DNA of 64,000 nucleotides from Spirochaetia bacterium. Lineage in GTDB: Bacteria; Spirochaetota; Spirochaetia; DSM-2461. Within the stretch, counting starts at the first letter, position 1, and the number at the start of each line of letters is the position of its first letter. This document shows positions 1,024 to 45,939 of the stretch, one piece after another. A model generated the notes under the pieces. It made no database searches and was not told where the DNA came from. It saw only the letters and a program-made list of their open reading frames with translations. The stretch is taken from the NCBI GenBank assembly GCA_963668315.1, contig OY764216.1, positions 4,544,001 to 4,608,000 on the forward strand, written 5' to 3'. A program made the position numbers and the translations under genes.

Positions 1024-1926
1024 TTAAGCAGCCACTGCTCTTGCCGTAGCCTTTTCCCTATAGATTACTGGAGGCCAACCTCCCATATTTACCGTACTAA
1101 TGCGCTTCCGATTATAGTAAACCATGACATATCGCCAGATTACGGTTTTTACTTTTTCCCTGGTCATTTTCCTTGTATTCATTTTATACAGCTTTTCTTT
1201 CTTCAATGTTGCGAAAAAACTTTCCATCCGAGCATTATCGTAGCATTTCCCGACATCACTCATGCTCTGTATGGCCCGATAGTCTCCGAGCAATTTCTTA
1301 AACCGGTCACTCGTATACTGGCTGCCAGCATCACTATGAATGAGAACACCACTCCCAGGAATTCTACTTTTATATGCGTCATCAATGGCCTGAATACACA
1401 ATTCCTTTTTCATATGGTTTTCCATTGCGATGCTGACGATTTCTCCTCCAAAACAATCCAAGACTGGTGCAACATATAACTTTCCATCAGAGCACGGCAC
1501 TTCGGTAATATCAGTCAGCCATTTCTCATTTGGCCTTGTTGCAGTGAAGTTCCTCTTCAGCACATTGTCAGGCCTCTGAGCCTTTTTATCCGCTTTGGTG
1601 AGGCCGTTCGGGTTTCTACGGCTCTTATGAAGCAGATTCCCTTTCCGCATAGCTCTGATTACTGTAGATCTGGAAACGGTCTCTCCCTTTTGCTGTAATG
1701 CGATGAGAACCCTTTCTATTCCGTAGTTCTTATTATCCGGGTGCTCATCCAGAATCCCATGTATTTTGACCAGAAGAAGTTGCCAGGCTCTCGGCTTATT
1801 TCGGGTGCGTTTCCACTTGTAATAGCCTGTTTCACTCACATTCAATACTTTGCACATCTTTACGACTGGAAGGTCGATTTCTTCCTTCTTATTCAAGATA
1901 TAAGCAAAGATTGTCCGTATACTCAC
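1024..1926 (-). CDS. IS3 transposase OrfB (DDE/rve)
   Basis: WLTDITE, HSDAGSQY and DNARMESFF motifs. Confidence 0.95.
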   Translation of the reverse strand: MSIRTIFAYILNKKEEIDLPVVKMCKVLNVSETGYYKWKRTRNKPRAWQLLLVKIHGILDEHPDNKNYGIERVLIALQQKGETVSRSTVIRAMRKGNLLHKSRRNPNGLTKADKKAQRPDNVLKRNFTATRPNEKWLTDITEVPCSDGKLYVAPVLDCFGGEIVSIAMENHMKKELCIQAIDDAYKSRIPGSGVLIHSDAGSQYTSDRFKKLLGDYRAIQSMSDVGKCYDNARMESFFATLKKEKLYKMNTRKMTREKVKTVIWRYVMVYYNRKRISTVNMGGWPPVIYREKATARAVAA

Positions 1927-2198
1927 TTTTTCCGGTCCTTCGCGAAAAAACCGAGTGCATCCTTCAGAATATCATTAGCTTCTTTCAGTTCCTGATTTTC
2001 TTTCATCAATTGTTTTTCCCGTTCTGTCAGAGGAGAAGTATCAGGATCTGGTGACAGACTCTTATTTCTCTTCCGAGCCTTTCTCCAGCCGGACAAAGTT
2101 CCGTAATTTACACCCAGCTGTTCCGATGCTTTCTTTAATCCGATTTCATCGGATAGCTTTAATGCTTGTTTCTTAAACTCTTTACTGTACTGTCTCAT
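1923..2198 (-). CDS. IS3 transposase OrfA (HTH)
   Basis: MRQYSKEFK N-terminus, HTH, and leucine-zipper-like end ILKDALGFFAK. Confidence 0.93.
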   Translation of the reverse strand: MRQYSKEFKKQALKLSDEIGLKKASEQLGVNYGTLSGWRKARKRNKSLSPDPDTSPLTEREKQLMKENQELKEANDILKDALGFFAKDRKK

Positions 2199-2388
2199 TT
2201 TTATACCCCTTTTATTTTCGGGTATTTTTAGACTGCACTTTTATGATAATCCTTCACACCTATACATATGATAAGTCAACAACTTAATTTTCTTTTGTGT
2301 GTTTCGTGTGTACAATGTCAAGACTTCGTGTTTATAAATAAACTAATGGTATAATACTAAAATATTATTTAAAAATAGAGGTACTTCC

Positions 2389-2622
2389 ATGAAAGATAAA
2401 TTCAAGGAGTGCGACGACGATTGTGTACTTGATCTTAAAATGAGATCATCAGATGAAAATACAAGACTCTGGAAAGATGAGCTTGACAAATTCAAAAACC
2501 TTATAAAGTTTTCCGATCCAGAGAAAGAGAAATGCTTCAAATGTAAGGAATCAATTGTAAGTTGGAATGGGGAATACCTATTCTGTGCGAAGAAAGGTAT
2601 AATTCTAAAATATCTGAAATAG
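2389..2622 (+). CDS. Small Cys-rich hypothetical protein
   Basis: 77 aa with a GAGGT RBS; Cys pattern CxxxC...CxxC...C. Confidence 0.55.
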   Translation: MKDKFKECDDDCVLDLKMRSSDENTRLWKDELDKFKNLIKFSDPEKEKCFKCKESIVSWNGEYLFCAKKGIILKYLK

Positions 2623-2822
2623 TCCACCATCAAAATAGCAGCTTTGGAATGGTCCCTCTCATCTAAATAGGATGCTTTCACCCAAGCAGAAAGAAGTTAT
2701 GCTATCGCTACACAACTGATTATCAAATCCTTTGTTTATCATTTACGAATATTCAATAGGAGTTTATGATAGTTAATGTGAATTCGCTTTTTCAAAATTA
2801 AATCGAATTTCATATATTATGA

Positions 2823-2840
2823 GTTAGAAGAAATAAGTGC
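2823..2840 (+). repeat. R'-like core site (GTTAGAA) opening the NUDIX cassette; the rest of this attC is degenerate
   Basis: gttagaagaaataagtgc is the reverse complement (16/18) of gcactaacttcttctaac at 3350-3367. Confidence 0.7.
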
Positions 2841-2899
2841 TTATGTATTTATTATAATTTAAGATTCCGCCGTCCTTGGCGGAAATATAGGAATGATAG

Positions 2900-3310
2900 A
2901 TGATAACAAGTACGGGGGCGGCAATCTTTTTATCCAACCCTTCCAATCATGAACAAATTCTTATTGCTAAGCGTAGTGATATGAAAAAGAAATATCCTAA
3001 TTATTGGGAATTACCTGGAGGGGCGATAGAAGATTATGAAACTCCTAACGAGTGTATTATCCGGGAAATACAAGAAGAGTTAGGGGCAGAAATTCAAGAT
3101 TTAAAACTCGAATTTACAGATTTAAGTTACCATAGTGGCAAACGCTACATTGTTTTCCTATTTTCTGGTCAAATTACAGCGGATTCAATTCATACAAATA
3201 TCGAAATTTCGGAATGGAAATATGAGAATATTGATAACGTGAGCGAATATAAAATGTATCCCCGTGTTGAAGAGCAGTTACGAATATTTCACTCAAAACT
3301 TTCAGTGTGA
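2900..3310 (+). CDS. NUDIX hydrolase (cassette gene)
   Basis: Nudix box GGAIEDYETPNECIIREIQEELG. Confidence 0.93.
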   Translation: MITSTGAAIFLSNPSNHEQILIAKRSDMKKKYPNYWELPGGAIEDYETPNECIIREIQEELGAEIQDLKLEFTDLSYHSGKRYIVFLFSGQITADSIHTNIEISEWKYENIDNVSEYKMYPRVEEQLRIFHSKLSV

Positions 3311-3360
3311 CCGTTCACCATCCATGGCTCACTACTTGTTTTCTTTCCCGCACTAACTTC

Positions 3361-3629
3361 TTCTAACAGCGTCTATATGCTCCGCTTTCGCTACGGGCTT
3401 CGCCAAATTTAAATCAAAAAGAATAATCCGTGAATGTTCAATAAACTGGGTATATAATGATTCTATACAACAAGGATTTGAACATTGACATCCCTACTGT
3501 CATGCTTTTTGCTTTCGCAAAAAACACGCCAGCTGACGGGCTGCAAGTTAAATCGGCGTTGTATAGAAATCAGCATTGGCATACAGCCGTTTTTGATTTA
3601 AACTTCAATATAAACGCGAAACGTTATTG
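3361..3629 (+). repeat. Long attC-like site A
   Basis: TTCTAAC ... GTTATTG. Inner arms gcgtctatat/atataaacgc. A 13-bp stem tttaaatcaaaaa/tttttgatttaaa. Confidence 0.75.
3461..3568 (+). repeat. Short canonical attC-like site nested inside site A
   Basis: Perfect IR ttctatacaac/gttgtatagaa. L boxes gattt(g)aac/gttaaatc with one extrahelical base. Internal hairpin. Confidence 0.8.
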
Positions 3630-3700
3630 GTAATAAGCGCCAATGCATTTATTATTCAAAGAAGAACCCGGCGTCCTGCCGGATAAAATGGAGGAAATAA

Positions 3701-4120
3701 GTGGATTTACCAATATTGAAAGATAAAGATCTTTTTCCTGATAATGATGTATTAAGAAATGCTCTTAAAGATGATTTTGATATATTTCAAGAATTTGAAA
3801 ATACAATCACAAATGATACACACAAGTTAGTTGGCGAATGGAGATATTATAACGATGGCAAGGCTTGGATTTACAAAGCCCAATACAAGAAAAAAACAGT
3901 ATTTTGGTTATCAGTAATATCAACCGGATTTAATGTAACATTCTATTTCAATGAAAAGAATTATGAGGGTATTTTTGACTTACCAATTGAAGAATTAATA
4001 AAAGATAATTTCAAGAGTATGGAATTAGTTGGTAAATTACGTCCTCTACAAATCAGTATAAAGAATAAGAACCAAATTACAGATATACAAGAAATAATTG
4101 AATATAAAAAGAAGTCATAA
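3701..4120 (+). CDS. DUF3788-like protein (cassette gene)
   Basis: EWRYYNDGKAW...KKKTVFWLS pattern; GGAGG RBS with a GTG start. Confidence 0.8.
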   Translation: MDLPILKDKDLFPDNDVLRNALKDDFDIFQEFENTITNDTHKLVGEWRYYNDGKAWIYKAQYKKKTVFWLSVISTGFNVTFYFNEKNYEGIFDLPIEELIKDNFKSMELVGKLRPLQISIKNKNQITDIQEIIEYKKKS

Positions 4121-4131
4121 TGTAAGACGCA

Positions 4132-4229
4132 AGATAACAAAGTTTTGGAACTGTCATGGCTATTTGTAATAAAATCCGCTTTCGCAGATTTTCCGCTAAT
4201 TATCCATGCAGCTTAAAACGACGGTATCT
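4132..4229 (+). repeat. Short attC-like site with a mutated core (GGT instead of GTT)
   Basis: AGATAAC...GGTATCT. L boxes gttttggaactg/cagcttaaaac. Lies directly after a stop codon. Confidence 0.65.
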
Positions 4230-4253
4230 TAGCAAAAGGATTTTGGAGGAAAA

Positions 4254-4736
4254 ATGATAAAAGACAAAAAGAAAATGGTATATTTTTCAGGACCTCCTTG
4301 TTCTGGTAAATCAACGATCTGTAAAGAATTGACTAAGAAAATAAGAAATGTTAAATATGTTCTTGGTGATAAATATTGGATAAAGAATGATGATTATGAT
4401 TTTAATAGACGAATAGTGAAAACTAATGAAGATATTATAAAATCTCTCTGGAATAAAACATCAAAATCATTACTTTTAGAATGGGTTCCATATAGTGGAT
4501 CTTTCGTATCAGAACTAAAAAAGATTTGTGAAGAACAAAAATTGGAATTCAATCATGTCGTCATTTATGCTCCAAAGGATATACTTGAACAAAGAAAATT
4601 AATTCGAGATAAAAATAAAGAATTGGGTCCAATTAATTTCGAGGAAATTAAAAATCTGGAAAATGTTTTACTTTTTGATTCTAGTATTGAGCCGTTAGAA
4701 TCAATTGTTTTAGAATGTAAAAAGTTATTTGATTGA
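4254..4736 (+). CDS. P-loop kinase/AAA-family protein (cassette gene)
   Basis: Walker A GPPCSGKST; NMP-kinase-like size. Confidence 0.85.
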   Translation: MIKDKKKMVYFSGPPCSGKSTICKELTKKIRNVKYVLGDKYWIKNDDYDFNRRIVKTNEDIIKSLWNKTSKSLLLEWVPYSGSFVSELKKICEEQKLEFNHVVIYAPKDILEQRKLIRDKNKELGPINFEEIKNLENVLLFDSSIEPLESIVLECKKLFD

Positions 4737-4837
4737 GTTCTATTTGGTCGAAAAATGGAATCCGGAATATTAACCTATAAACTGTGGCCGTCCGGCATCC
4801 GTGCCTCACTACTTGGTTGCACACCGACGCTAACTGC

Positions 4838-4982
4838 CAATAACAGTTCATAACTGATTTCGCTTCGCTCCATCCAAATTGATATTTTGACAAACCCCGA
4901 AAAAAGTATGGTATACTTTTCCCGATGTTTATCAAGCCCACAAGGGGCCGGATCAACTTCAATTATGAACGGATCGTTAAGG
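4838..4982 (+). repeat. Long attC-like site B
   Basis: CAATAAC...GTTAAGG. Arms gttcataactga/tcaattatgaac match 11/12. The 5' flank 4783-4819 is homologous to 3306-3342. Confidence 0.75.
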
Positions 4983-5049
4983 GCGATTAGCACTTTAAAT
5001 CATGATAAAAAGCAAAACGGCCAGCCAAGCGGTATGGATTGGAGGAAAA

Positions 5050-5463
5050 ATGAAACATCTAGGTTCGTGTCTTTGTGGAAATATTAAATATGAAATACGA
5101 GGAGAGTTTGAAAACTTCTTTTTCTGTCACTGTAAATCTTGTCGTAAAGATACTGGTTCTGTTCATGCTTCAAATCTTTTTTCAACGACTGCAACATTGA
5201 GATGGTTGAAAGGAGAGGAAAAAGTAAAAACGTATAACCACAATAATTCAGGACATATAAAGAGCTTTTGTCCTAACTGTAGTTCTGCACTACCCAATAT
5301 TCAAATGGATGGTAAACTGCTTGTAGTTCCTGCAGGAAGTCTGGATACAGATATAGAGATCGTTCCTACCGGCCACATCTATTTGAATGAAAAAGCTAAT
5401 TGGGATCACCATCTCGAGAATTTTCCCCATTATGAGGATTTTCCTAAAGAGTTAAATGAGTAG
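5050..5463 (+). CDS. GFA (glutathione-dependent formaldehyde-activating) family Zn protein (cassette gene)
   Basis: GSCLCG, CHCKSCRK and FCPNCSS motifs; GGAGG RBS before ATG 5050. Confidence 0.92.
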   Translation: MKHLGSCLCGNIKYEIRGEFENFFFCHCKSCRKDTGSVHASNLFSTTATLRWLKGEEKVKTYNHNNSGHIKSFCPNCSSALPNIQMDGKLLVVPAGSLDTDIEIVPTGHIYLNEKANWDHHLENFPHYEDFPKELNE

Positions 5464-5494
5464 AAAATCGGATTTTATCAAAAGTCGAGCATAA

Positions 5495-5558
5495 TTCACC
5501 CCCATAGCTCATTACATTACAACATACCGGCGCTTACTTCCTGCAACAGGTTTATATG
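5495..5558 (+). repeat. Truncated left half of a third long attC-like site
   Basis: ttcacccccatagctcattac...cgcttacttcctgcaacaggtttatatg parallels 3314-3379; no right arm was found. Confidence 0.55.
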
Positions 5559-5831
5559 AGGACCCGAACTTTATAGTGCCCCATGCTTAATTCTTTAGAA
5601 AAGTATGATAAACTGTAGGTTTTTAGTAATCTCCTTTTTCAATCCCAACTTCCCCCACAAGTAACTTATTTCATCATATGTAAATATATTAATATTATAA
5701 TATACGTACACACATATCTTTATAGATATATTATAATATATCTATATTTATCTTCTTATAATGTATGCATTTATTTTCTTCTTCTATCGAAAAAAGAATT
5801 GACATTCTTACATCCTGATTTATCATAAGCT

Positions 5832-7094
5832 ATGAACATGACAGAAATGTGCGATAATATATTAAAAAGCAAAAGATTTGGAATCATTCTTTTTCTGATA
5901 ATTTTCATAATAAATACAGCCATTTTTACAGCTTCTAATGATTACTCAAATGTTCGTATGCTTTCTAACTATCGAAGCTTTATTTATACCATTATTGATA
6001 AGACAGCAGAAGTTCTTAACGAAAAATACTTCATGAATGATCTACTATATAAACGCACCCTTAATAGTGAAGATCTGAATCTTGAAGGTATTCTTGAAGA
6101 AATGCAAAACCTCTCACCGCTATTTCTCAATATTGCACTAATAAAAGAACCAATTGTGAACTCATTAAATGATTACTCTATCCGGACAGAAAACACAAAG
6201 TTATTCTTCATATTTAAAATTTCAAATCAGAATGGAAGTTTATACATTAAAGATAAAGTAATTCAGGTGGAATATGACCTTAGGGATACACTCAAAAACT
6301 TACAAATTCTAGAGGACTTCTCATTAACGACCTCCCCCAATTCATACCTCTTAGTCTATGGAATCAGAGTCAAACCAAAGGGCATACCAATTACGCCACA
6401 TCAACTTGTATTTTGCTTATTGTTTAGTTCTCTCATTTTTATTATTCATAGAAGAATAAGCCATAGATTTCGCTCTTATCTCTATACTTCTGATGGCCTT
6501 GAAACCATGATCTTCCTTTTTGAAAAGACGGAAGAGTTTTCAGCTAATCATTCACGTAATGTTGCTGAAATATCGCATTTCCTTGGAAAGAAGTATGGTA
6601 TTAAGAGAAAAAGGCTTAAAGATCTCAAGGTTGCAGCATTCCTTCATGATATAGGAAAAATATCAGTTCCAGTAAACATATTAAATAAGAGCGGAGCACT
6701 TTCTAAAGATGAGTTTGGTGTAATAAAAAAACATGTAAATTATTCTGCAGAGATTATAGAGCATTTTGACAGCCTTAAACACCTTCGAGATATTATTCTA
6801 TATCATCATGAAAAGACTGATGGGACAGGATATCCAGAAGGACTACTAGATCATCAAATCCCTATGGAGAGTAAGATAATAGCTGTAGCGGATATATTTG
6901 AAGCCCTAGTAGGTGAAAGGCCATATAGGTCACCGCTTGATAAACATGAGGCTTTAAATATAATGAAAGAAATGCCAATAGATCAAAAAATCTTATCTAT
7001 CCTTATTTTCAATATTGATGAGGTTTGTACTCTTATAAAATACAAAAAAAAGAGATCGAAATATGAGCAAAAACATATTTTCAGAATCAAATAA
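5832..7094 (+). CDS. Membrane-anchored HD-GYP phosphodiesterase
   Basis: Two TM segments; HDIGK, HHEKTDGTGYP and RPYR motifs. Confidence 0.9.
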   Translation: MNMTEMCDNILKSKRFGIILFLIIFIINTAIFTASNDYSNVRMLSNYRSFIYTIIDKTAEVLNEKYFMNDLLYKRTLNSEDLNLEGILEEMQNLSPLFLNIALIKEPIVNSLNDYSIRTENTKLFFIFKISNQNGSLYIKDKVIQVEYDLRDTLKNLQILEDFSLTTSPNSYLLVYGIRVKPKGIPITPHQLVFCLLFSSLIFIIHRRISHRFRSYLYTSDGLETMIFLFEKTEEFSANHSRNVAEISHFLGKKYGIKRKRLKDLKVAAFLHDIGKISVPVNILNKSGALSKDEFGVIKKHVNYSAEIIEHFDSLKHLRDIILYHHEKTDGTGYPEGLLDHQIPMESKIIAVADIFEALVGERPYRSPLDKHEALNIMKEMPIDQKILSILIFNIDEVCTLIKYKKKRSKYEQKHIFRIK

Positions 7095-7689
7095 TGTAAA
7101 TAAACTTCCATAGATTTCTATGTTTGAGTTTCTCACTATTGGATTATTCCAATCATTAAGGATTTTAAATTAAGTATGGCTGTGACGAAAACATGAGGAG
7201 TTATCTTAATGCGAAAATTTCTTCTACTTATTGTAGAACTCATCCAATATTCATGAGAACGTTCTTCGGGGTAGGCACCCGAAGGATTGGGAAAAGACAT
7301 AACTCCATCTTTCAACAATAGTTTCCCTTATCTTATTATATTATCGAATATTACCAGATATTACTCTTTCAACGTGACGAATATTGGACTATATCAATTG
7401 ATTCTTGTAACCAAAAAAATGTCACCAAATCGTCAAAAGTAACAAAAAAGACCTAAAAAACTGATACTTTAGATTTCTAATAATATAATAGGTTCTCTGA
7501 GGAACTTATAATATGAATTATGTAGTATCCTTATTCTCGGTATAAGCTTCCTAGCTAATATCTTTCTCTTTTGTAATTATATGGTAATACCGATGCAATC
7601 TTGTCAGTTTAAACTATCATCATAAGCAACGGGGATTGAGCAACCCGGATATGAGAGCAACAAAGTTGAACGTAATGCTTTTTTCATAA

Positions 7690-7739
7690 AACTCTCTCCA
7701 AATAGTTTTAGAAGACCGGTTGATAATCGGTCTTTTTTT
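7690..7739 (+). repeat. AACTCTCTCCA plus AGACCGG hairpin motif, copy 1 (terminator-like)
   Basis: Similar to 29193-29235 and 42801-42841. Confidence 0.7.
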
Positions 7740-8730
7740 ATTCTGGAAAATTCTGAGCTATAACCCCAACCAGTTTATGGGGTTGATAAAGTTCCTCTAA
7801 ATACAGGATCTCTTCTCTGGTCAGTTTCAAATCAGCTGCCCGAACCGCTCCCTCAATATGATAAAGTTTAGTTGCTCCCACCACAGGAGAAGTTACCTTG
7901 GACAACAACCAAGAAAGAGAAATTTCCGTCATGGATACTCCTCTTTTCTCAGCCAATTCCGCCACCCGTTCAATGACGACTAGATCTTGGACGACTGTAC
8001 GGTCATATTTAGATTTGGCATAGGCATCCTGCTCTAATCTTTGAGAAGTCTCTCCGGGATGCTTTGCCAGCCTGCCTCCGGCCAGAGCGCTGTAGGGTGT
8101 CAGGGCGATGTTATCTTCCCGGCATAAGGGAACCATCTCCCTCTCCTCCTCACGAAAGAGAAGATTGTAATGTCCCTGAATGGAAATGAACTTTGAAAAA
8201 CTTTCCTTCTCCGCCAGAGCATTGGCCTTGGCCAGTTGCCAGGCAAAACAGTTGGAAATCCCGATATAGCGCGCCTTTCCTGCTTTAACGATACGGTTCA
8301 GCCCATCCATTATTTCATAGAGAGGCGTCTGGTAGTCCCACATGTGATAGATATAGAGGTCTACATAATCCATTCCCAGATGGGACAGACTCTGATCTAT
8401 CATATTTTCGATATGTTGCTGGCCGCTGATTCCAGAAGCTATCTCCTCTTGAGTTCTCGGGAGGAATTTGGTCGCTATAACAATTTCGTCCCTTTCTGCG
8501 AAGTCCCTTATAGCCCGTCCCAGGAACTGTTCGCTGGTTCCGCCTTGATAGGCGATGGCCGTATCGTAAAAATTGACTCCCAGCTCCAGGCCTTTCTTAA
8601 TAATTTCACGGGAAGGTTCTTCATCGAGAGTCCAGCTGTGCATTCCGCTTGCAGCTTTACCGAACCCCATGCATCCCATACAGATCCTTGAGACATTCAA
8701 ATCAGAACTTCCTAATTTTATCAGTTCCAT
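7738..8730 (-). CDS. Aldo/keto reductase
   Basis: GCMGFG, DTAIAY, DLYIYH and PYSALAGG motifs. Confidence 0.95.
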   Translation of the reverse strand: MELIKLGSSDLNVSRICMGCMGFGKAASGMHSWTLDEEPSREIIKKGLELGVNFYDTAIAYQGGTSEQFLGRAIRDFAERDEIVIATKFLPRTQEEIASGISGQQHIENMIDQSLSHLGMDYVDLYIYHMWDYQTPLYEIMDGLNRIVKAGKARYIGISNCFAWQLAKANALAEKESFSKFISIQGHYNLLFREEEREMVPLCREDNIALTPYSALAGGRLAKHPGETSQRLEQDAYAKSKYDRTVVQDLVVIERVAELAEKRGVSMTEISLSWLLSKVTSPVVGATKLYHIEGAVRAADLKLTREEILYLEELYQPHKLVGVIAQNFPE

Positions 8731-12358: not shown

Positions 12359-13396
<1,038 letters not shown>

Positions 13397-13593
13397 TCAA
13401 CATCTGATTTATCATTATCTGTAAGCTTACCATAATTTACCTTCCTCATTTGGTATGACTTAATGATAGCTGAGCATTTACCAGAAGAAAATGTACGATC
13501 CGATTTATAAATTGCCTATTTGTCCAAACCGATATTAGAATTACTTATTTTTTTCATAAAATAGTGCATAATATAAGTAGGAAGGATAATTAT

Positions 13594-14475
13594 ATGAATC
13601 AGAAGATAGAATTAATGAAATCCCTGTTACTGGAGTATCTCCCCTGTGATCAGCACAAAGACATAGATATAGAAGGCGTTGCGCTGGTAAGAAGGGATAC
13701 CTCGTTTGAAGCCAGGCCGGCTATCTATAAACCGGAAATTATTTTCGTCGCCCAGGGACAGAAACATACTTTACTGGGAGATAAGGTTTACACCTATGAT
13801 TCGGAAAATTACTTTGTCCTTACCGTTCCGATGCCGGTCATTTGCGAAGCGGTGATTGAAGAAGGGAGGCCCCTGCTGGGGATGGTATTGCGAATTGATC
13901 CCCAGGTCATCGGAGAGATCCTTTTTGAAATGGAAATCGCTCCCCCGCCGAAAAACCAGGTAAACCATGGTATCTATCAGGCTAAAATGTCCGATAATAT
14001 TCTGGATTCCCTCATAAGACTGCTGGAAGCCCTCAGATCAAAGAACGAAACAAAAATCCTCGGTCCCAATTACGTAAAGGAGATTCTGTTCAAAGTCCTC
14101 ACGGGAGAGCATGGAGAGATTCTCAGAGACCTGGCCTATAACAACAGGAACCTGTATCAGATTTCACGCGTAATCAGCAAAATTCATGAGGAGTATTCCC
14201 AGCCCATAGAGATACAGACCCTGGCTCAGGAAGCAGGGATGAGCACATCTTCTTTCCATACCAATTTCCGAGCTATTACCAGTTCGTCCCCTCTCCAATA
14301 CATCAAAAATATCAGACTACATAAGGCGAAGGAAATAATTCAACAGGAGGGGGAGAAGGCCTACGCAGCGGCGATGCGGGTAGGCTATGAAAGCTCCTCC
14401 CAATTCAACAGAGAGTATAAGAGGCTCTTTGGTGTGACACCGGCAAAGGATACAGTAGAGAGCCAGAATGTTTAG
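13594..14475 (+). CDS. AraC-family regulator (YqhC-like, AraC_N domain)
   Basis: C-terminal double HTH, VGYESSSQFNREYKRLFG; divergent from the reductase cluster. Confidence 0.92.
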   Translation: MNQKIELMKSLLLEYLPCDQHKDIDIEGVALVRRDTSFEARPAIYKPEIIFVAQGQKHTLLGDKVYTYDSENYFVLTVPMPVICEAVIEEGRPLLGMVLRIDPQVIGEILFEMEIAPPPKNQVNHGIYQAKMSDNILDSLIRLLEALRSKNETKILGPNYVKEILFKVLTGEHGEILRDLAYNNRNLYQISRVISKIHEEYSQPIEIQTLAQEAGMSTSSFHTNFRAITSSSPLQYIKNIRLHKAKEIIQQEGEKAYAAAMRVGYESSSQFNREYKRLFGVTPAKDTVESQNV

Positions 14476-15335
14476 CGTATAAGAGCGCTTCCACGCTCAA
14501 TAAGGCAGCGGGTCAAATCCTTCATATCCTCTGTTTCCATATTCCAGTGATGCCAGAAAAGGTCTACATCAATACGAAAATCTGCGATTTCTCTTAAACT
14601 TCCTCCCAAATATAAAGCACATTGCATTAGTGGTATCGCCCCATATGCTTTACCCCGGAGAATCATATTCAGGAACTGCTCCGGAGAGGGTATGTAATGA
14701 ACCGGAAAAGAAAATTCCCCATCGGGAAAAATCCTTTTGAGGAACCGTTCGTGAAGCTGGTCATCCCTGTTGAAGATGACGGCAGGAGCGTATTTCACTG
14801 TTTCTTTGTCTAATCCCCGGGGGAACCAATTATCCTGAAAAGAAGGAGTGCAGATAAGACAATACTCCATCATACCCAATCTTTTTACTCCGCAGCCCTG
14901 GAGAGGGCGACTATCAGATCCAATACAACCGGAAACTTCACCTTTTCTGAGCATTTCTCTGGTCTTGTCCTGATCATCGACCTTCAGATCCAGGAAGCGC
15001 CCTTTCTTCTCCAGATACGGCTCAATCCCATCAAGAAACCAGGTAGCCAGACTGTCCGCATTAATCCCCACTTTCATTGTCCGGACAATTTCTCCTCCGT
15101 CCATTTCTGCCTCAAGCATCCTCACCTTTCGGAGATGCTTAATCAATTCCCTACCTCTAGCCGTTGGCACGGGTGGCGTACTCCGGGAGAGGAGTATTTG
15201 CCCTTCCTGATCTTCCAGCGTCTTAATTCTCTGGGAGACCGCCGATTGGGTCAGAAACAAAGCCTCGCCCCCTCTTTCGAATCCGCCCTGATCGCAGACG
15301 GCAGCGAGGGCTTCCAGCAAACGGTAATCGTACAT
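14472..15335 (-). CDS. argP: LysR-family regulator, ArgP/LysG type
   Basis: TQSAVSQRIK and INADSLATWF motifs; divergent from a LysE-family gene. Confidence 0.88.
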   Translation of the reverse strand: MYDYRLLEALAAVCDQGGFERGGEALFLTQSAVSQRIKTLEDQEGQILLSRSTPPVPTARGRELIKHLRKVRMLEAEMDGGEIVRTMKVGINADSLATWFLDGIEPYLEKKGRFLDLKVDDQDKTREMLRKGEVSGCIGSDSRPLQGCGVKRLGMMEYCLICTPSFQDNWFPRGLDKETVKYAPAVIFNRDDQLHERFLKRIFPDGEFSFPVHYIPSPEQFLNMILRGKAYGAIPLMQCALYLGGSLREIADFRIDVDLFWHHWNMETEDMKDLTRCLIERGSALIR

Positions 15336-15343
15336 ACACATAT

Positions 15344-15387
15344 ATTAGCATTGCTAATGATATATGAATAGAATTAATTGTACTAAT
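15344..15387. promoter_or_regulatory. LysR (ArgP/LysG) operator sites
   Basis: Palindrome ATTAGCA-T-TGCTAAT (T-N11-A) at 15344-15358; weaker attaattgtactaat at 15373-15387. Confidence 0.65.
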
Positions 15388-15413
15388 CCTACGATTATCA
15401 CTATAGTTGAGCC

Positions 15414-16028
15414 ATGAACGCTTATCTTACCGGTTTGGCCATCAGTGCCTCACTTATAATTGCCATCGGAGCCCAGAATGCCTTTGTTCTCACTCAAGGG
15501 ATGAGACGTCGCTATTACCTTGCCATACCTCTGGTATGCAGCCTAAGCGATGCCCTTCTTATCCTGACGGGAGTCCTGGGTGTGGGTGAAGTACTGTCAT
15601 CTCGCCCTCTTCTTACTATCATCGGGACAATGGGAGGAACTGTTTTTCTTTTTCTTTACGGGATAAATCGGTTCAGATCCTTTCAGAATCCGGTTCCGCC
15701 GCAGGAAAGGAATGACGGGCCCCAGTCTCTTCGTTCCGCCCTTCTCCTTACATTAGCCGTCACCTGGCTTAATCCCCATGTCTACCTGGATACGCTAATT
15801 CTATTGGGAGGTGTCAGCAGCCGTTATTCCGGCAGGGACAGACTGCTTTTCGGATCGGGAGCAGCGACATTGTCTTTTCTTTGGTTTTTCTCTCTGTCTC
15901 TGGGAGGAAGGCTTCTTTCTCCTCTGTTTGAAAATCCCCGTTTCGGAAAGGCCCTCGACCTAATAATGGCTCTTATTATGTGGAATCTTGCCGTCTCCCT
16001 CGGGAGTGAACTAATCGGAGGTTTCTAA
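15414..16028 (+). CDS. lysE: LysE/ArgO amino acid exporter
   Basis: IGAQNAFVL and TWLNPHVYLDT motifs. Confidence 0.92.
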   Translation: MNAYLTGLAISASLIIAIGAQNAFVLTQGMRRRYYLAIPLVCSLSDALLILTGVLGVGEVLSSRPLLTIIGTMGGTVFLFLYGINRFRSFQNPVPPQERNDGPQSLRSALLLTLAVTWLNPHVYLDTLILLGGVSSRYSGRDRLLFGSGAATLSFLWFFSLSLGGRLLSPLFENPRFGKALDLIMALIMWNLAVSLGSELIGGF

Positions 16029-16190
16029 TGAGTTCTCGAGAGATAGTTATATAACTTCTCCCTTTTCAATCATAAAAACTTCAGATGTTGCATCGCATCC
16101 TTCTATTTTCTCCGATCCCATCTCATTTTCTCGCATAAAAAAGAACGCTGCCTTTCACCACTTATATAACATATCTTCTATCTGGACTTT

Positions 16191-16895
16191 TTATGATTTT
16201 TTCTTCTGCTCAGATTCTAATATCGCAGCAAAACCATTTCGTATCATTTCCATACTTAGATGATCATCCCCCCCTTGAACAGTCACTTTTATCGCGTTCA
16301 TACCCATTTTACGCAATTCCTCATCCGTATAAACACCGATCCAGTTATATGTTCTTTTCCTAATATGCTCATTATCAATACAATAAACACCAGTATCGGG
16401 AATTATCATATTCTGATTCATGAAATAGGCTTCCAACAAGTAAGGTTCAAAAAGCACTACCTGGTTGAATGGATCGTATTTCCTCATCATAGCCGCGGAT
16501 AGAGCTAAAGCTCCCCCATGCTGAAAACCACTTAGTATGATTTTATCTGCAGAGAGATTGTATCTTCTCATAACAATGTCGACAAGATAGTTAACAAAGG
16601 ACCCGGCAGAAAGTAGAGATGCTCCCATGGACTGCTTATTTTTCAAAAAACTCTCCTCAGTACATGCATCATCCATCGGAAAGACAAACCAGTATCTTTC
16701 CTTAAGACCTCCATAAGTGGGATGACCTGACATAAGTGCAGAATTAGATAAATTCCCATCTCCCGCCCAAATATAAGCCGTTGGGAAAAGAGCTTCAATC
16801 TCTTTCAGAAAAGGGGCTATTTGCTTTGAATTAGATCCGGCAGAATGAAAATAGAATAGAGCTCGGTCGATTTCTTTTGGTATGATTTCAAACAT
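16191..16895 (-). CDS. Alpha/beta-hydrolase-fold protein (carboxylesterase-like) lacking the nucleophile Ser
   Basis: FHSAGSN...YWF...IILSGFQHGGALAL, against the canonical GFSQGG. Confidence 0.7.
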   Translation of the reverse strand: MFEIIPKEIDRALFYFHSAGSNSKQIAPFLKEIEALFPTAYIWAGDGNLSNSALMSGHPTYGGLKERYWFVFPMDDACTEESFLKNKQSMGASLLSAGSFVNYLVDIVMRRYNLSADKIILSGFQHGGALALSAAMMRKYDPFNQVVLFEPYLLEAYFMNQNMIIPDTGVYCIDNEHIRKRTYNWIGVYTDEELRKMGMNAIKVTVQGGDDHLSMEMIRNGFAAILESEQKKKS

Positions 16896-16941
16896 ATAAT
16901 CTCCATAGATAATGTATTTCCATCATGATAGAATATAAATC

Positions 16942-16960
16942 CCGACAACTAGCTGTCCGG
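16942..16960. promoter_or_regulatory. Probable WYL-regulator binding palindrome
   Basis: ccGACA-actagc-TGTCcgg, between the WYL gene end and a TATCAT -10 of the downstream gene. Confidence 0.55.
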
Positions 16961-16966
16961 TATCGA

Positions 16967-17887
16967 TTACTTATCGTAGGATTTTAGTATTTTTTTTGCT
17001 TGTTCTACTATACGCGTTCTTATATGCTCAGGAGATACTATTTTAATTCCATCACCAAGACTGAGGAGAAAAGCAAACCACAATCGCTCTTCTTCTAATA
17101 CATAAGCCGATCCTCTGAATGTTTCATCATCAACTTTTTCCAGGTCTACTACTGAAAGATACTCCTTTATAGCAGAGAGAGAAGATTTAGTGCAAAAGAA
17201 ATGAACAACTGTGCCTGTCCTAGCATTCTTTTCTATAAGATAATTAAATATTCTTGCCGGATTCCCATGATCGATTCCGGAAAATGCTTTAATTGCACGA
17301 ATCCTGTCCATCCGTATTAACTTGAATATCCTGTAGTCTTGATTCTTCTTATCATAAGCAACCATATACCAGGCATACCACCGAAACTCCAACCCTATTG
17401 GTTCAGCAACTTTACTGCTCCCCTTACCCGACCCGTTTGTATAATAAAACTCAACAGCTCCATTATTAGTAATAATCTTTCTGATAGTAACTAACGCTTC
17501 ATTTTGCTCCTTCTTCTCCCTGGCAATAGAGAAATCGACTCTTACAGGATTATTATCAATCTCTCCGTGAAGGCTCTTTATCTTTTCCAAAGTATCCGTA
17601 ATAGTTTTGTCTTCAAAGACTGTATTGAGCGATAGTAGGGACTGTTTAATGTGCTCAATGTCCTTTGCAGTTGCCGATTGTTTAGAAAAGCCGTATGTAT
17701 CCAGGATTTTATATCCTCCATAGGTTCCTCTCTCAGAAATTATAGGTATTCCCGCCATATTAATCGTATCAATATCCCTTTGGATTGTTCTCTCGGATAC
17801 TTCGAATTCTCCAGCCAATTGGGCACAGGTGGCTTTTTCTCGATTGAGAAGATATGTGACGATGGCAAGTAATCGATCAATTCTCAT
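16967..17887 (-). CDS. YafY/PafC-like HTH-WYL transcriptional regulator
   Basis: MRIDRLLAI, EVSERTIQRDI and AWYMVAY...YRIFKLIRM motifs. Confidence 0.93.
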   Translation of the reverse strand: MRIDRLLAIVTYLLNREKATCAQLAGEFEVSERTIQRDIDTINMAGIPIISERGTYGGYKILDTYGFSKQSATAKDIEHIKQSLLSLNTVFEDKTITDTLEKIKSLHGEIDNNPVRVDFSIAREKKEQNEALVTIRKIITNNGAVEFYYTNGSGKGSSKVAEPIGLEFRWYAWYMVAYDKKNQDYRIFKLIRMDRIRAIKAFSGIDHGNPARIFNYLIEKNARTGTVVHFFCTKSSLSAIKEYLSVVDLEKVDDETFRGSAYVLEEERLWFAFLLSLGDGIKIVSPEHIRTRIVEQAKKILKSYDK

Positions 17888-18045
17888 AGGAAATCATGAA
17901 TATTTTTATACTCCCTGCATAGGCAAGTAATTAGGATGAATCAGATATTTTATCATAGAAGAGATGATTAGAATAAAAAACAAATACAACAGAGAATAAA
18001 AAAAATACCAAAAAACTTAAACTATCTGGGTAGAGTTTATGAATC

Positions 18046-18693
18046 CTAAAATTTCTTCACTCCATAAATAAGAATCTTTAAATATTCTTCCATAACATCA
18101 TTAAGATCTTTTCCTTTAAACTCAAATAGCAAAGTTCCTCTTAAAAGAAATCGATGATGCATCGCCCGGACTCCATTATTTATGATATCTCCAAAAAACT
18201 GTGCGGGGATGTCTGAACGAATTGATCCGTCATTCTGCCCTTCAGTAATATACTCCTGCAATAATAAGTCTGACGCTCCCATGATGAATAATTCTTCGAA
18301 CTCTTTCCTAAATTCATCAGAAATACGTGACTCTGAATAGATCGTATCGAACTCTGAAATGAATCTGTATATTTTAACCATATCAGAAGAGAGCCAACGA
18401 AGCCTTAATAATGTCTCAACCTTCAATAAGCCGTTAGTCATCTTCTCACAAGCAGTTCTGATTCGACCTTCCAACATTTGGATATCTTCAATAAGTATCT
18501 TGAAAACAGCAAGACTCAGAAACTCTTTATCAAGAAAATACCGATAGAGAGAAGTACGACTGATATTAATCTCATCAGCGATTTCCTTCATTTTTGTTGT
18601 TTCTAGTCCTTTCTCCAAAAACATCTTTTTTGCGATATGGATAATCTTTTCACGAGTCTCTTCAACTTGATAAATCATGCGATCAGTTTTCAT
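18046..18693 (-). CDS. TetR/AcrR-family regulator
   Basis: N-terminal HTH IADEINISRTSLYRYF. Confidence 0.9.
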   Translation of the reverse strand: MKTDRMIYQVEETREKIIHIAKKMFLEKGLETTKMKEIADEINISRTSLYRYFLDKEFLSLAVFKILIEDIQMLEGRIRTACEKMTNGLLKVETLLRLRWLSSDMVKIYRFISEFDTIYSESRISDEFRKEFEELFIMGASDLLLQEYITEGQNDGSIRSDIPAQFFGDIINNGVRAMHHRFLLRGTLLFEFKGKDLNDVMEEYLKILIYGVKKF

Positions 18694-19873
18694 AAGCTAT
18701 AGCTCCCATATCATCAGTAATCATTCGTAATCGCTCAAAACAAACAATAAGAAATACAATATATCCCAGCAAAAAAACAGGTAGTAAATATAAGGTTCTT
18801 TCACTGGCGATAAAACCAAATAAGGGAGGTAGAAAGGTAGCCCCCATATAAGCAACAGCCATTTGGAATCCCATTATTGCCTGGGAATTCTCTTTCCCAA
18901 ACCGTACGGGAGTTTCATGAAGCATAGACGGGAAGATCGGAGCAAGGCCGAAACCAACCATAAGAAATCCCAGTAAAGTCAGGGGCAAAGATAAGGGAAG
19001 AAGCATTAGTAAAATACCTGAAAGTACGATTATTGCGCCCCTGCGAATTAATGTATTATTCGACCATCTGTAAGTTAGGAATCCAGTAAGAAATCGTCCC
19101 AAGGTAATACTTCCAAAAAAGAAGGATACCCAGCTAGCAGTTTCTGCCGGGTTTAATCCCTTTACCTTAAACAGAAAAGAGCCACCCCAAAGCCCCATAG
19201 AAGATTCAATGCCGCAATAGAAAAGAAAGACAAGGAGCGCCATCGGGACTCCTTTAATTTTCAGTGCTCCCAGAAAGGAAACTTGATCACCAGGCTCTGT
19301 CACTCCTTTGGTAGATTTTCGGGATTTGACCTTGTCCCAAAGTGGAATCGCGGCAATAAGCACAAAAACCAGAATGCACTGGAATATCCCCACACTCCGG
19401 TACCCCGATCTCCAGGGAAAGCCCTTATGCAAAAGAACGGAAAGAATCATTGGTCCACCCAGTGCACCGACTCCCCAAAAACTATGAAGCCAGCTCATAT
19501 GCCGGGACTCGTAATGATCCGCCACATAGGCATTGAGGCCGGCATCAACTGCACCTGCTCCCAAGCCGAGAGGTATGGCAGCGGGAAGTATCCATAGAAA
19601 GGAAGGAGCTAATGAAAATCCCAGAAGAGCAGCCGCAGTAAGTGCAACACTTAATGTGGTAAGCTTCCCCGTGCCGAAGCGCTTTAGAAGAAGACCGGAA
19701 AACATACTGGAAAGAATGGTTCCCCCTGAGATGATGACTTGTATAAATCCAGCAAATCCATAGGGAACATTCAAATCCGGCTGCATTACCGGCCAACCAG
19801 AGCCGAGAAGAGCGTCGGGAAGTCCCAGACTGATAAATGCGATGTAAATAATAATTAATAGAAGAGTTGCCAT
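18683..19873 (-). CDS. MFS transporter
   Basis: FISLGLPDALLG and GAGAVDAGLN motifs; 12-TM pattern. Confidence 0.92.
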   Translation of the reverse strand: MATLLLIIIYIAFISLGLPDALLGSGWPVMQPDLNVPYGFAGFIQVIISGGTILSSMFSGLLLKRFGTGKLTTLSVALTAAALLGFSLAPSFLWILPAAIPLGLGAGAVDAGLNAYVADHYESRHMSWLHSFWGVGALGGPMILSVLLHKGFPWRSGYRSVGIFQCILVFVLIAAIPLWDKVKSRKSTKGVTEPGDQVSFLGALKIKGVPMALLVFLFYCGIESSMGLWGGSFLFKVKGLNPAETASWVSFFFGSITLGRFLTGFLTYRWSNNTLIRRGAIIVLSGILLMLLPLSLPLTLLGFLMVGFGLAPIFPSMLHETPVRFGKENSQAIMGFQMAVAYMGATFLPPLFGFIASERTLYLLPVFLLGYIVFLIVCFERLRMITDDMGAIAYEN

Positions 19874-19884
19874 ATTTATATTCC

Positions 19885-20880
19885 TTATTGTTCCAGAATT
19901 TCCAGGATTCGTTTGGTTAAACCCCTTTCATAATCCAGGTTGAAGTCATTAGCAAGTGAAATTTCAGGGTAAATTCTTTCAGGTAGATTCCTTTTTACTT
20001 CTTCCTTTATTGCCAATAGATAATCATCATTGAGAAACTCTCCAAATAGAACGATTGAATCAGGATCGAGAACTGCCGTCATACTGAGAATCACCTTTGA
20101 TGCTGCTGAAGAAAAATCAGGCATAGAATCAGCGAGGTCAGCTCCCCATTTAATCTCAAGTGGCAACCAGGAAACTTCACCGGCGAAATGCCTGTTTCCC
20201 TTAAGGAGTTTTCCATTAATTTTAATACCTGCACCGGGAGGATACTTTCTGGGAAAATAAAGATAAATCTCGGTTATGTCAGTATCATCCTTTCGACTAT
20301 GTCCCAGTACAGCAGCATTCACGTCATTCTCAACAATAACAGGCAGATGGAACTTATCCTTAATCAACTCCACAATAGAGATGCCCATGAGCTGTTGGTA
20401 ATCCATAACCACAATCTCACCTTCGAGTTCAATACCCGGGATTCCAATACTGATAGCGGATATTGATGAATATTTCTCTATGCATCCTGTTATGGCATCC
20501 TCAAAACATAACCAGGAAACATCTATCAGTGGCTCAAGGGATTCTATGACCTTGCCATGAAGATCTATAACCCTTATACAAACAGAGTCCAGGCCATTTA
20601 TTTCTCTTGTGTAGATGATTAGCCCTAGTTTTGCCCTTTCATTAAAGACATACTGTGTAGACGGTCTTCCTCCGTTTGAAGGAGTCAGTTCCCCTATCAG
20701 GACACGGTTCTGCTCTATTAAATCATTAAGAATACCTTTAACGGTAACTACGGTTAAACCTGTTCGGGTTGCCAGTTCTTTTATAGTAGAGACCTTTCTT
20801 AGTTTCAGTTCCTGGAGAATAACCTTCGTATTGAATTCTTTGACAATTAGAGTATTCACACCTTTATCAGAATCTTTCAT
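19885..20880 (-). CDS. ROK-family transcriptional regulator
   Basis: N-terminal HTH; VENDVNAA and FAGEV motifs. Confidence 0.88.
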   Translation of the reverse strand: MKDSDKGVNTLIVKEFNTKVILQELKLRKVSTIKELATRTGLTVVTVKGILNDLIEQNRVLIGELTPSNGGRPSTQYVFNERAKLGLIIYTREINGLDSVCIRVIDLHGKVIESLEPLIDVSWLCFEDAITGCIEKYSSISAISIGIPGIELEGEIVVMDYQQLMGISIVELIKDKFHLPVIVENDVNAAVLGHSRKDDTDITEIYLYFPRKYPPGAGIKINGKLLKGNRHFAGEVSWLPLEIKWGADLADSMPDFSSAASKVILSMTAVLDPDSIVLFGEFLNDDYLLAIKEEVKRNLPERIYPEISLANDFNLDYERGLTKRILEILEQ

Positions 20881-21194
20881 ACACCTCTTTTTATATGTCC
20901 TTTAATTATAAGTCAAGAGTAATCAACAGGAAAATTGATGTGATCTGGGTTATTTATTCCTTTACATGATTTCAAGAGGACGGCACCTAAATCATTTCAC
21001 ACTGTTACGATCCATTAGCTACAGTCTATTCTAAATTTCTTAGTAGTATCATCCCAGAATAGAAAGACAAAAAATATGCTATACTTGGTTAAGCTATAAA
21101 CAAGAGAATCTCTGCCCTTTACAATTTTACTTAAAGCTTAGTAAAGGGTAATACATATTTAATATATAATAATGTGATTTGATGAAGTGCATTT

Positions 21195-21611
21195 ATGGGA
21201 GATATACCATTGAGTTTAACAAAAGAGAAAGAAATAGATATTTATGTATCTGACCTTGGGAGAGCAATAGTTTTTTATGAAGAGCTATTAGAAGTTAAAA
21301 TTGAGAGAAGATTTGATGATCGTTGGGCTTTTTTTCCCGATAGTAAACTTTTTTTACTAAGCTATACTTACGATAATAAAAATAATATACCCAAAACTTC
21401 TCATCAAGCTACAAGAAAACCAGGTAATTCATGTATTCCAGTTTTCCATACAAGTGACATTAATAACGAGCATTCAAGAATAGAGTTATTATCCCATAAT
21501 GTTAGTGAAATCTGTTTTTTGAATGTAATAAAACCTTATTACTTTTTCACATTTATGGATCCCGATAATAATATTTTAGAAATAGGTAACTATCCCAAAT
21601 TAACAGCATGA
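21195..21611 (+). CDS. VOC/glyoxalase-family protein
   Basis: VSDLGRAIVFYEELL...FMDPDNNILEI. Confidence 0.85.
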   Translation: MGDIPLSLTKEKEIDIYVSDLGRAIVFYEELLEVKIERRFDDRWAFFPDSKLFLLSYTYDNKNNIPKTSHQATRKPGNSCIPVFHTSDINNEHSRIELLSHNVSEICFLNVIKPYYFFTFMDPDNNILEIGNYPKLTA

Positions 21612-21670
21612 ATGTAGTAATAATACTCATAGTATGAGAAATAATCATTTATCCCTAGGAGATTCATAAA

Positions 21671-23866: not shown

Positions 23867-23971
23867 CATTTGCACTAGTACTTTAAAAAAAGAGCTATCA
23901 ATTCTGAAAATAGGAATGTAATAGGAAAAACAGTTTCTTGTAGTTTTTTTTATTCATGCTAGCCTGTTCTC

Positions 23972-25785: not shown

Positions 25786-25850
25786 GAGAGAGAACAACTC
25801 TCTTAAAAATATATTATAATTGTCATAAGACAATAGCGTTAGGAGGAAAA

Positions 25851-27491: not shown

Positions 27492-27506
27492 TAAAAGATA
27501 GGCCCA

Positions 27507-27540
27507 AAACCTACCCGCCCTTGAAGGGCGGGTTTTTCTT
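27507..27540 (+). terminator. Intrinsic terminator / stabilising hairpin
   Basis: acccgccc-ttgaa-gggcgggt followed by a T tract. Confidence 0.75.
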
Positions 27541-27562
27541 ATCGATGAAAAGGAGAGAGAAT

Positions 27563-29077: not shown

Positions 29078-29122
29078 TATAAAAAACATTACAATATTAT
29101 TGAACTAAACCTTAAGTATAAA

Positions 29123-29441
29123 TCGCGAATAAAAGTAATGCTATACAACAAATCTAAACCATTTTAAAAAGAAGGGATATAGAGTATCCTCGAACTCTCT
29201 CCAACAGTTTTAGACCGGAAGTTTTCCGGTCTTTTATTATAAATGGGAACTTTTGATATTTCGGTCTCAATTCTAGGAATGAAATAGATCCAATAATCCC
29301 TCTTTACTGTTTACTGGATCATAAAGATTCAACATATACTCATTATCTATTTCTGAACGAAGAAAGCTCAAAGAATGATTAGCAAAATTATAAGTGATAT
29401 CATCTGAGTTTGAAATTAATACAAATACTACCGTAGTACAT
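29123..29441 (+). repeat. ~320-bp direct repeat, copy 1
   Basis: Aligns to 42732-43049 at roughly 85-90% identity, judged by eye. Confidence 0.92.
29273..29441 (-). pseudogene. 3' remnant of a DUF4825-like gene
   Basis: Paralogous to the C-terminal part of 42881..43309; the 5' part is absent. Confidence 0.8.
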
Positions 29442-29534
29442 GTATCAAAACTTTTTTGCCAAAGTAATTTTCAAAAGAAGGTTGAACACGGCAATTCATA
29501 AACTAAAACGATGAGAAAGTTCAAATAAAATTAC

Positions 29535-43553: not shown

Positions 43554-43560
43554 AATTATT

Positions 43561-45927: not shown

Positions 45928-45939
45928 TATATACTCCTC

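Follow-up and report, generated by a model that had tools for sequence, protein, structure and literature searches.

Which enzyme could move a row of short genes, separated by long palindromes, when no recombinase gene lies beside it? A locus of the window, i.e. the whole 64-kb stretch of Spirochaetia chromosome that was analyzed (G000:C1:4,544,001-4,608,000, from a genome of 5.62 Mb with 51% GC), raises this question. Our analysis confirms that positions 2823-5561 of the window consist of three co-oriented cassettes cut at G^TT (NUDIX; DUF3788 and kinase; GFA), with no recombinase gene of their own. Sequence comparisons suggest that we are dealing with a satellite array, without recombinase, of an integron-like system that would differ from classical integrons in the geometry of its attC sites, in its cassette ends and in its probable enzyme. 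We regard it as a genuine three-cassette array with G^TT bounds and an attI-like head, and consider it rather probable that it is serviced in trans by a 266-amino-acid (aa) Xer/IntI-like tyrosine recombinase that lacks the IntI-specific insert (hereafter, the short recombinase) and is encoded 0.46 Mb away. The features of the array and of its left side are the following (window coordinates; array A is a related array located elsewhere in the genome; ORF, open reading frame):

1024..2198, minus strand: IS3-family transposase, left neighbor of the array (orfA 1923-2198, orfB 1024-1926; Pfam rve 2.5e-23, HTH_Tnp_1 6e-10).
2256..2822, plus strand: array leader with a 77-aa ORF (2389-2622) devoid of Pfam match; a further copy stands at the head of array A (genome 3,445,843-3,445,281).
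2804..2829, plus strand: attI-like junction, CGAATTTCATATATTATGA followed by GTTAGAA, with a predicted crossover between G2823 and T2824.
2824..3623, plus strand: cassette 1, with 5' end repeat 2823-2840, TCC-loop hairpin 2865-2884, NUDIX ORF 2900-3310, 3' end repeat 3350-3367 and its own attC.
3361..3629, plus strand: attC W1 of 269 nucleotides (nt), with an outer frame of the ~144-nt type (type 2) and a complete canonical attC (type 1) inside (3465-3564).
3624..4976, plus strand: cassette 2, with 5' end repeat 3623-3639, hairpin 3668-3682, DUF3788 ORF 3701-4120, kinase ORF 4254-4736, 3' end repeat 4828-4844 and its own attC.
4132..4229, plus strand: internal type-1 attC-like element between both ORFs of cassette 2 (nhmmer E 0.02).
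4838..4982, plus strand: attC W2 of 145 nt, full member of the type-2 family (covariance model R1, 127.7 bits, E 5e-33).
4977..5561, plus strand: cassette 3, with GFA ORF 5002-5463 and a truncated attC at its end (3' flank from 5495, R'' 5541-5547, L'' 5549-5558).

All the features listed by an earlier note, which had been drawn up from the letters of this DNA alone, were found where it had placed them, and its gene calls agree with Pfam (NUDIX 7.8e-18, DUF3788 3.5e-25, AAA_18 9.6e-10 for the P-loop kinase, GFA 1.5e-26). Scanned blindly for AAC...GTT pairs enclosing a stem of nine pairs or more, the plus strand of the first 9 kb of the window yielded exactly W1 and W2; the same scan of both strands of the whole genome returns 442 sites. 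The note had also described a cluster of attC sites lacking an integrase (CALIN), i.e. at least two clustered attC with no intI nearby. This description is borne out, as W1, W2 and a half site all lie within 2.2 kb and none of the 18 TIGR02249-like matches of the genome falls inside the window. The arrangement of a classical integron (an IntI with its additional domain beside attI and an array) is not found at this locus. The array region has a low GC content (32-35% across window 2000-8000). A promoter in the leader is without support, since the promoter scan gave 21 promoter-like sites, close to the number obtained in shuffles (16.9 +/- 4.7).

The ends of the cassettes provide a first body of evidence. 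The complementarity between offset cores had been proposed to be the scar of recombination at G^TT, with conserved flanks extending well beyond 7 bp, and both proposals hold. In cassette 1, positions 2823-2840 and 3350-3367 are 89% complementary (16/18); in cassette 2, positions 3618-3639 and 4828-4849 are 77% complementary over 22 nt and the end repeats pair at 14/17. The ends of cassette 3 match only at 10/18 (by eye). In all 12 type-2 cassettes of the genome, cognate ends pair over 17-32 nt (median 21), whereas the 132 non-cognate combinations reach 15 at most, with a median of 6. Cognate end pairing is far above chance. In canonical-integron cassettes of the same genome, the median is 11 nt. 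Furthermore, the two ends of 11 of the 12 cassettes differ at position 11, with A at the 5' end and G in the reverse-complemented 3' end; the top strand is mismatched there, and only the bottom strand can form a T.G wobble. This difference is present in both cassette 1 and cassette 2 of the window; cassette 3 does not fit the end-pairing pattern. Of 18 end pairs from the arrays of three other genomes (G082, G046 and G001), 15 show the position-11 difference (by eye) and 16 extend over 17-31 nt. Finally, the R' tail complements the next R'' along all three type-2 arrays of the genome, i.e. the window array and arrays A and B.

The cores of W1 are R'' TTCTAAC (3361-3367) and R' GTTATTG (3623-3629), and those of W2 are R'' CAATAAC (4838-4844) and R' GTTAAGG (4976-4982). 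Folding the bottom strands, a check that had been suggested with the note, and the top strands showed that W1 and W2 are more stable on the bottom strand (-46.2 vs -40.5 kcal/mol for W1 and -27.8 vs -23.3 kcal/mol for W2). The remark that no extrahelical base is obvious was also correct: the L box of both sites contains a C/T mismatch (G.T wobble on the bottom strand) and no bulge, and neither a flipped-out G in L'' nor a flipped-out T in the spacer was found. The attC sites of integrons usually span 57-141 nt, and both W2 (145 nt) and W1 (269 nt) fall outside this range. The sites, taken in the note to be long and atypical, belong to a conserved ~144-nt attC family, for which W2 has a normal length; W1 is long only because a second, canonical ~100-nt attC (3465-3564; R'' ATACAAC, R' GTTGTAT; match 8.5e-31) is nested in its loop. 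W1 is matched by halves (nhmmer, 1e-6 for the left half and 0.032 for the right half) and is 75% identical to B6, a 265-nt site of array B. Composite sites of this kind (265-269 nt) are conserved in four genomes, being present also in G001, G046 and G082. Just 5' of the nested attC, they share a conserved TATAAT-like box, GCTATAATAGATTC, which reads GGTATATAATGATTC in the window (window 3440-3465, L033:9806-10071, L043:13607-13871). The element at 4132-4229 in cassette 2 has an R'' AGATAAC and an R' decayed to GTATCT, and it is missing from the array-B copy of this cassette (gap in the paralog alignment).

The third site, predicted as a half site at 5495-5558, is real as such, with a 3' flank, an R'' (CTGCAAC, 5541-5547) and an L'', and homology to complete cassettes of three genomes stops at 5549-5561. 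With filters off, the covariance model R1 gave no full site at this position. A complete third site (L'/R' near 5608-5622) was ruled out by this model and by aligning the region to the complete versions of this cassette in G075, G022 and G038. Since the window sequence past L'' is unrelated to these complete relatives, the third site is a truncated half site and the end of the array. As its attC is truncated and its ends are decayed, the third cassette is probably fixed in place. No Rfam family fits the sites of the window or of arrays A and B, where this search gave only tRNAs and sub-threshold matches.

Profiles were built from sites of the same geometry (nhmmer) and followed by the covariance model R1. 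The genome-wide search for the repeats that had been recommended found the type-2 family at only three loci, with 17 sense-strand R1 sites:

genome 5,012,047-5,030,578: array B, 12 of the 17 R1 sites.
genome 3,437,962-3,444,446: array A, four of the 17 R1 sites.
window array: one of the 17 R1 sites (W2, 127.7 bits).

The ~144-nt consensus comprises nnnTAAC, one unpaired A, an 11-nt L'' arm, a conserved one-sided bulge GGTTCCGCTTCGCTYC, a stem, a three-way junction (CCCC/GGGG hairpin and variable hairpin), L', GAAAC and GTTAnnn, and it folds better on the bottom strand (-24.1 vs -14.6 kcal/mol). Among 13 sites, 25 of the 50 pairs of the model are changed on both sides, a count that leans towards the structure because the latter was derived from the same alignment. 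Model cells are paired at 87.7%, compared to 25-42% with slid partners and 76.7% in shuffles (0/500 as high). In the outer L helix, five of the six pairs are changed on both sides and 98.7% of the cells are paired. Among the 13 aligned members (by eye), a single bulged base (top-strand G or T) is seen in six, and pairing is perfect in four.

The mobility of these cassettes can be appreciated from their relatives. The earlier note had made its reading depend on whether homologous genes are bounded at G^TT in other genomes, and the GFA cassette, found in G075, G022 and G038 with 82-87% DNA identity, passes this comparison. Its homology starts at window position 4976 in G075 and 4970 in G038, within 6 nt of the predicted G^TT, and runs through a related upstream attC in G022 (4932); it ends at 5561 in G075 and G022 and at 5549 in G038. 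In G075 and G022, a full short attC follows the cassette. Array B ends with a copy of cassette 2 that is 87-92% identical (genome 5,030,563-5,031,645). A recent duplication as the origin of the array was ruled out by the 86-92% identity to paralogs. The NUDIX relatives found in other genomes are uninformative since they are only 47-50% identical and not clearly within arrays. The right flank of the array (window 5650-8730) has no counterpart in three other genomes of the genus, and therefore an empty site could not be seen.

The array begins with a head that recurs elsewhere. Window 2256-2836 is 86% identical over 586 nt to the stretch preceding the first cassette of array A, and the 77-aa leader ORF, which has no homologue among 100 relatives, is 99% identical at the protein level to its array-A copy. 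Compared with the sequence upstream of the first cassette in G001, next to the short recombinase, the 19 nt leading up to G^TT (CGAATTTCATATATTATGA in the window) are identical at 16/19 positions in the window and 17/19 in array A (by eye); both also resemble the array-B junction. Given this match with a recombinase-adjacent junction, the window array opens with an attI-like junction without any recombinase gene of its own: a recombinase lacking the IntI insert is absent from the window and present at the heads of array B and of the arrays of G001, G046 and G082.

A search for intI elsewhere in the genome, also suggested with the note, revealed both a canonical IntI and the insert-less 266-aa recombinase. 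The gene of the latter (genome 5,010,731-5,011,531) is divergent from array B. The first crossover is 104 nt from the start codon of the recombinase in array B, 107 nt in G001, 38 nt in G046 and 74 nt in G082, and sequence is conserved up to G^TT at the heads of these four arrays, whose genomes belong to two GTDB families. In G038 and G006, an N-terminally extended homologue points into the array. All eight array-linked homologues keep the catalytic residues and miss two segments (~43 aa) of the IntI-specific region of the IntI of this genome. The best solved relative of the short recombinase is XerA (4A8E, 2e-37), and IntI4 (2A3V) aligns in two pieces skipping residues 175-245. NCBIfam gives it 202.6 bits as XerA-like and 183.5 bits as IntI, both below cut-off. 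With this protein as query, the related-locus search gave one genuine relative plus two distant ones. A Spirochaetaceae metagenome-assembled genome is the closest named relative, in agreement with the spirochaete affinity that had been suspected. The short recombinase gene has two tRNA genes (L016:370-539) ~190 nt from its 3' end. Taken together, the sequence data make the insert-less recombinase a likelier partner of the window array than the canonical IntI.

In a survey of 101 Spirochaetia genomes (G000 included), R1 sites were found in 33, with matches above 100 bits in eight, homologues of the short recombinase (E<=1e-40) in 17 and an IntI above cut-off in 42; since related genomes are not independent, these counts are descriptions and not statistics. 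IntI and type-2 arrays are far apart or on separate contigs in seven genomes (G000, G006, G007, G046, G072, G082 and G099). Moreover, G001 (96% complete) and G021 (93%) carry type-2 arrays and the short recombinase, with no IntI above cut-off.

The insert-less recombinase could act as follows. In the array, the outer arm of each attC would pair only over TAAC/GTTA. When a cassette is excised as a circle, its two ends would pair into an outer arm of ~20 bp on the folded bottom-strand attC. This arm, the unpaired spacer of ~5 nt and the inner L arm of 11 bp would imitate a dif-like site, a fold that may be readable by a recombinase lacking the domain in which flipped-out bases are held. Integration of the circle would follow at the G^TT of an attI-like site, for instance the one at 2823. 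By its sequence, the short recombinase is closest to XerA of Pyrococcus (PDB 4A8E) within the Xer/dif systems (XerC/D), with complete catalytic residues, and the folded site, with two arms of ~11 bp around a ~5-nt spacer, would resemble dif. However, Xer sites are short, double-stranded and devoted to chromosome or plasmid resolution, whereas the sites described here are long single-strand hairpins that bound cassettes. The array also differs from pdif-type Xer modules: instead of short double-stranded dif-like flanks, its boundaries are hairpin sites of 145-269 nt.

Several points weigh against servicing by the insert-less recombinase. No recombination was observed, and the recombinase does not lie at the window locus. 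Of seven public sequencing runs, six contain this stretch, with no RNA run among those listed; the contigs of four of them (X1, X4, X5 and X6; contigs only, broken at repeats) contain no joint at any G^TT. The covariation count leans as indicated above. The tree in which six short recombinases form one clade (97) and the IntIs another (100), weakly joined (81) and apart from six other recombinases of the genome (99), comes from a quick search with support from the Shimodaira-Hasegawa-like approximate likelihood ratio test (SH-aLRT) only and a root placed on the other recombinases of G000. Type-2 sites occur with no short recombinase at E<=1e-40 in G060, G007, G013 and G017. In G009 (L047:2721-4800), two sites of the 144-nt family are followed immediately, on the same strand, by a canonical IntI (454 bits) whose start codon is 35 nt from the nearer site, an unusual arrangement. 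Cury et al. 2016 (PMC4889954), in the part of the paper available to us, judged that 50 non-IntI recombinases found next to attC sites were not integron integrases. Lastly, the genome does encode a canonical IntI (genome 3,134,145-3,135,380; TIGR02249, 361 bits; 1.41 Mb from the window array), and canonical attC sequences are nested in W1 and at 4132-4229. Canonical attC arrays of the ~100-nt type, in which the R'/R'' chain holds and cassette ends pair over 9-12 nt, lie at four places:

genome 3,142,182-3,164,529: canonical array beside the true IntI.
genome 3,310,058-3,315,192: canonical array.
genome 3,339,314-3,349,348: canonical array.
genome 4,865,666-4,871,790: canonical array.

This canonical IntI appears to act inside type-2 arrays too, because two composite sites of array B (5,025,120-5,025,332 and 5,027,695-5,027,899; L016) seem to have recombined at the nested G^TT: both retain the outer left frame and the nested canonical attC, and their right part is swapped exactly at this point for typical 5' ends of canonical cassettes (GTTCTAAAGACAA, GTTATCTTGACTA). 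It is possible, although we propose it only tentatively, that one cell hosts two gene-capture systems, a canonical integron and an insert-less one. The composite sites would then be dual docking sites that let cassettes cross from one system to the other, the insert-less enzyme using their outer frame and IntI their inner canonical attC, and recombinase-less arrays with an attI-like head, such as the present one, would be extra landing pads used in trans.

Rather doubtful in our view is the explanation that a once-mobile array has become a fixed remnant, moved or cut by insertion sequence (IS) activity and recombined by no enzyme. The IS3 element that abuts the leader, the truncated last attC, the poor match of the cassette-3 ends (10/18), the decayed GTT of the element at 4132-4229, the paralogs that, with only 86-92% identity, imply no recent copying, and the contigs devoid of G^TT joints would all fit such a fossil. 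However, cassettes 1 and 2 keep their end pairing (16/18 and 14/17) and the asymmetry at position 11, W2 (127.7 bits) and the attI-like junction are intact, and joint-free contigs do not prove the absence of recombination.

It seems unlikely that the locus is an ordinary CALIN of the classical integron, whose cassettes are moved by the canonical IntI, the short recombinase of array B being a mere neighbor such as an island integrase beside two tRNA genes. The presence of this IntI and of the tRNA genes, the canonical attCs nested in the window array, the exchanges at nested G^TT sites in array B, the IntI adjoining two type-2 sites in G009 and the general conclusion of Cury et al. (as far as the accessible text of PMC4889954 goes) speak for it. 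But the array of the canonical IntI itself (3.142-3.164 Mb) uses another, type-1 attC family of ~100 nt with an end pairing of 9-12 nt, IntI and type-2 arrays lie apart in seven genomes, arrays with a conserved junction are headed by the short recombinase in four genomes, drawn from two GTDB families, and no IntI above cut-off was detected in G001 and G021. Finally, it is highly improbable that the sites are mere intergenic palindromes, of the repetitive extragenic palindromic (REP) or miniature inverted-repeat transposable element (MITE) kind, ending in AAC and GTT by chance: although they are long, conserved, hairpin-forming and targeted by IS110-family elements, and although the type-1 element inside cassette 2 resembles a small insertion, this reading is already contradicted by the cassette-specific end complementarity in 12/12 cassettes, the R'/R'' chain along all arrays, the same gene unit bounded at or near G^TT in other genomes and the arrays that begin beside a recombinase.

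The known systems nearest to the window array are integrons. Like CALINs and sedentary chromosomal integrons, as these are presented in the available sections of PMC4889954, the array consists of small genes that lack promoters, share one orientation and are each followed by a hairpin site whose cores are AAC/GTT. The crossover at G^TT, the R' that complements the next R'', the better folding of the bottom strand and the existence of integrase-free arrays in a genome with integrases elsewhere are also shared. It differs by: (i) the length of its sites (145 and 269 nt, for a family norm of ~144), (ii) an asymmetric unpaired spacer (5 nt against 1 nt on the opposite side) and a conserved one-sided bulge of ~20 nt, (iii) the lack of regular flipped-out bases and ends that pair over 17-32 nt and not 7, and (iv) a recombinase without IntI insert at the head of the family arrays. 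The integrons of Treponema (Wu et al. 2013, PMC3607928) are likewise chromosomal arrays of a spirochaete host, with attCs of 63-132 bp according to the excerpts at hand, the upper value being that of T. succinifaciens, and the "inverted" type described there recalls the recombinases of G038 and G006 that point into the array. However, these integrons were found with the IntI of T. denticola as reference and their attCs have R and L boxes with one protruding G; insert-less recombinases, long end pairing and nested sites are not mentioned in these excerpts.

Spirochaetes attCs have been modeled by Ghaly et al. 2021 (PMC8352920), where, in the portion available, IntIs were chosen by their additional domain. 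This extra domain is held, in the accessible parts of three sources (PMC4889954, PMC9024848, PMC7790495), to enable the recognition of folded attC by a tyrosine recombinase and serves as a marker for finding integrons. Because the marker is this domain, arrays headed by a domain-less relative would escape standard searches or be filed as orphan CALINs. Our full-text literature search, made in the main texts, turned up no publication on spirochaete arrays operated by insert-less recombinases. Such arrays would offer a natural test of hairpin recombination without the IntI domain, and of the step between Xer and IntI. To this, the window array adds an attI-like head without recombinase gene, composite sites linking both systems and cassette bounds that can be compared across four genomes.

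Other elements were observed in or near these arrays. A 363-aa element of the IS110 family (Pfam DEDD_Tnp_IS110, Transposase_20) is present in four copies in array B (one at L016:5855-6946, genome 5,015,855-5,016,946) and one in array A (L018:7082-8173). Its insertion always replaces the R'' core of an attC, which then begins with GATTATC and not nnnTAAC, and it therefore looks attC-targeting. In this it resembles, as far as the available text on them shows, the IS1111/IS110 elements that target attC; this DEDD element would be a parasite of the arrays and not the mechanism that moves cassettes. In run X6, one 399-nt contig joins position 5452 back to 5084 (369 nt) within the GFA gene, which could reflect a tandem duplication, a small circle or an assembly artefact. 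A second insert-less recombinase of 287 aa, 36% identical to that of array B, is encoded 30 kb past the end of the window (L020:4252-5115, genome 4,638,252-4,639,115); a canonical-type attC match lies 5 kb from it (4,644,243-4,644,355), with no array of the 144-nt family nearby.

TCC-loop hairpins (e.g. GCCA-TCCA-TGGC) recur on the gene strand in the 5' and 3' untranslated parts of cassettes in the window (2865-2884, 3668-3682, ~3318-3340 and 4795-4812) and in arrays A and B. They are near background in the canonical arrays. Counting those with a perfect stem of at least 5 bp, the three type-2 arrays hold 14 in sense and three in the opposite orientation, i.e. 0.35-0.6 per kb compared to 0.13 per kb per strand genome-wide. 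The window as a whole is a mosaic, with more low-GC blocks (30-45% vs 51% for the genome) at 13000-30000 and 42000-47000, in which no site of either attC family was found. Directly to the right of the array, an HD-GYP-type gene (HD_5, 2e-37; window 5669-7082) is also low in GC and has paralogs with 70% DNA identity at genome 4,883,906 and 2,256,138.

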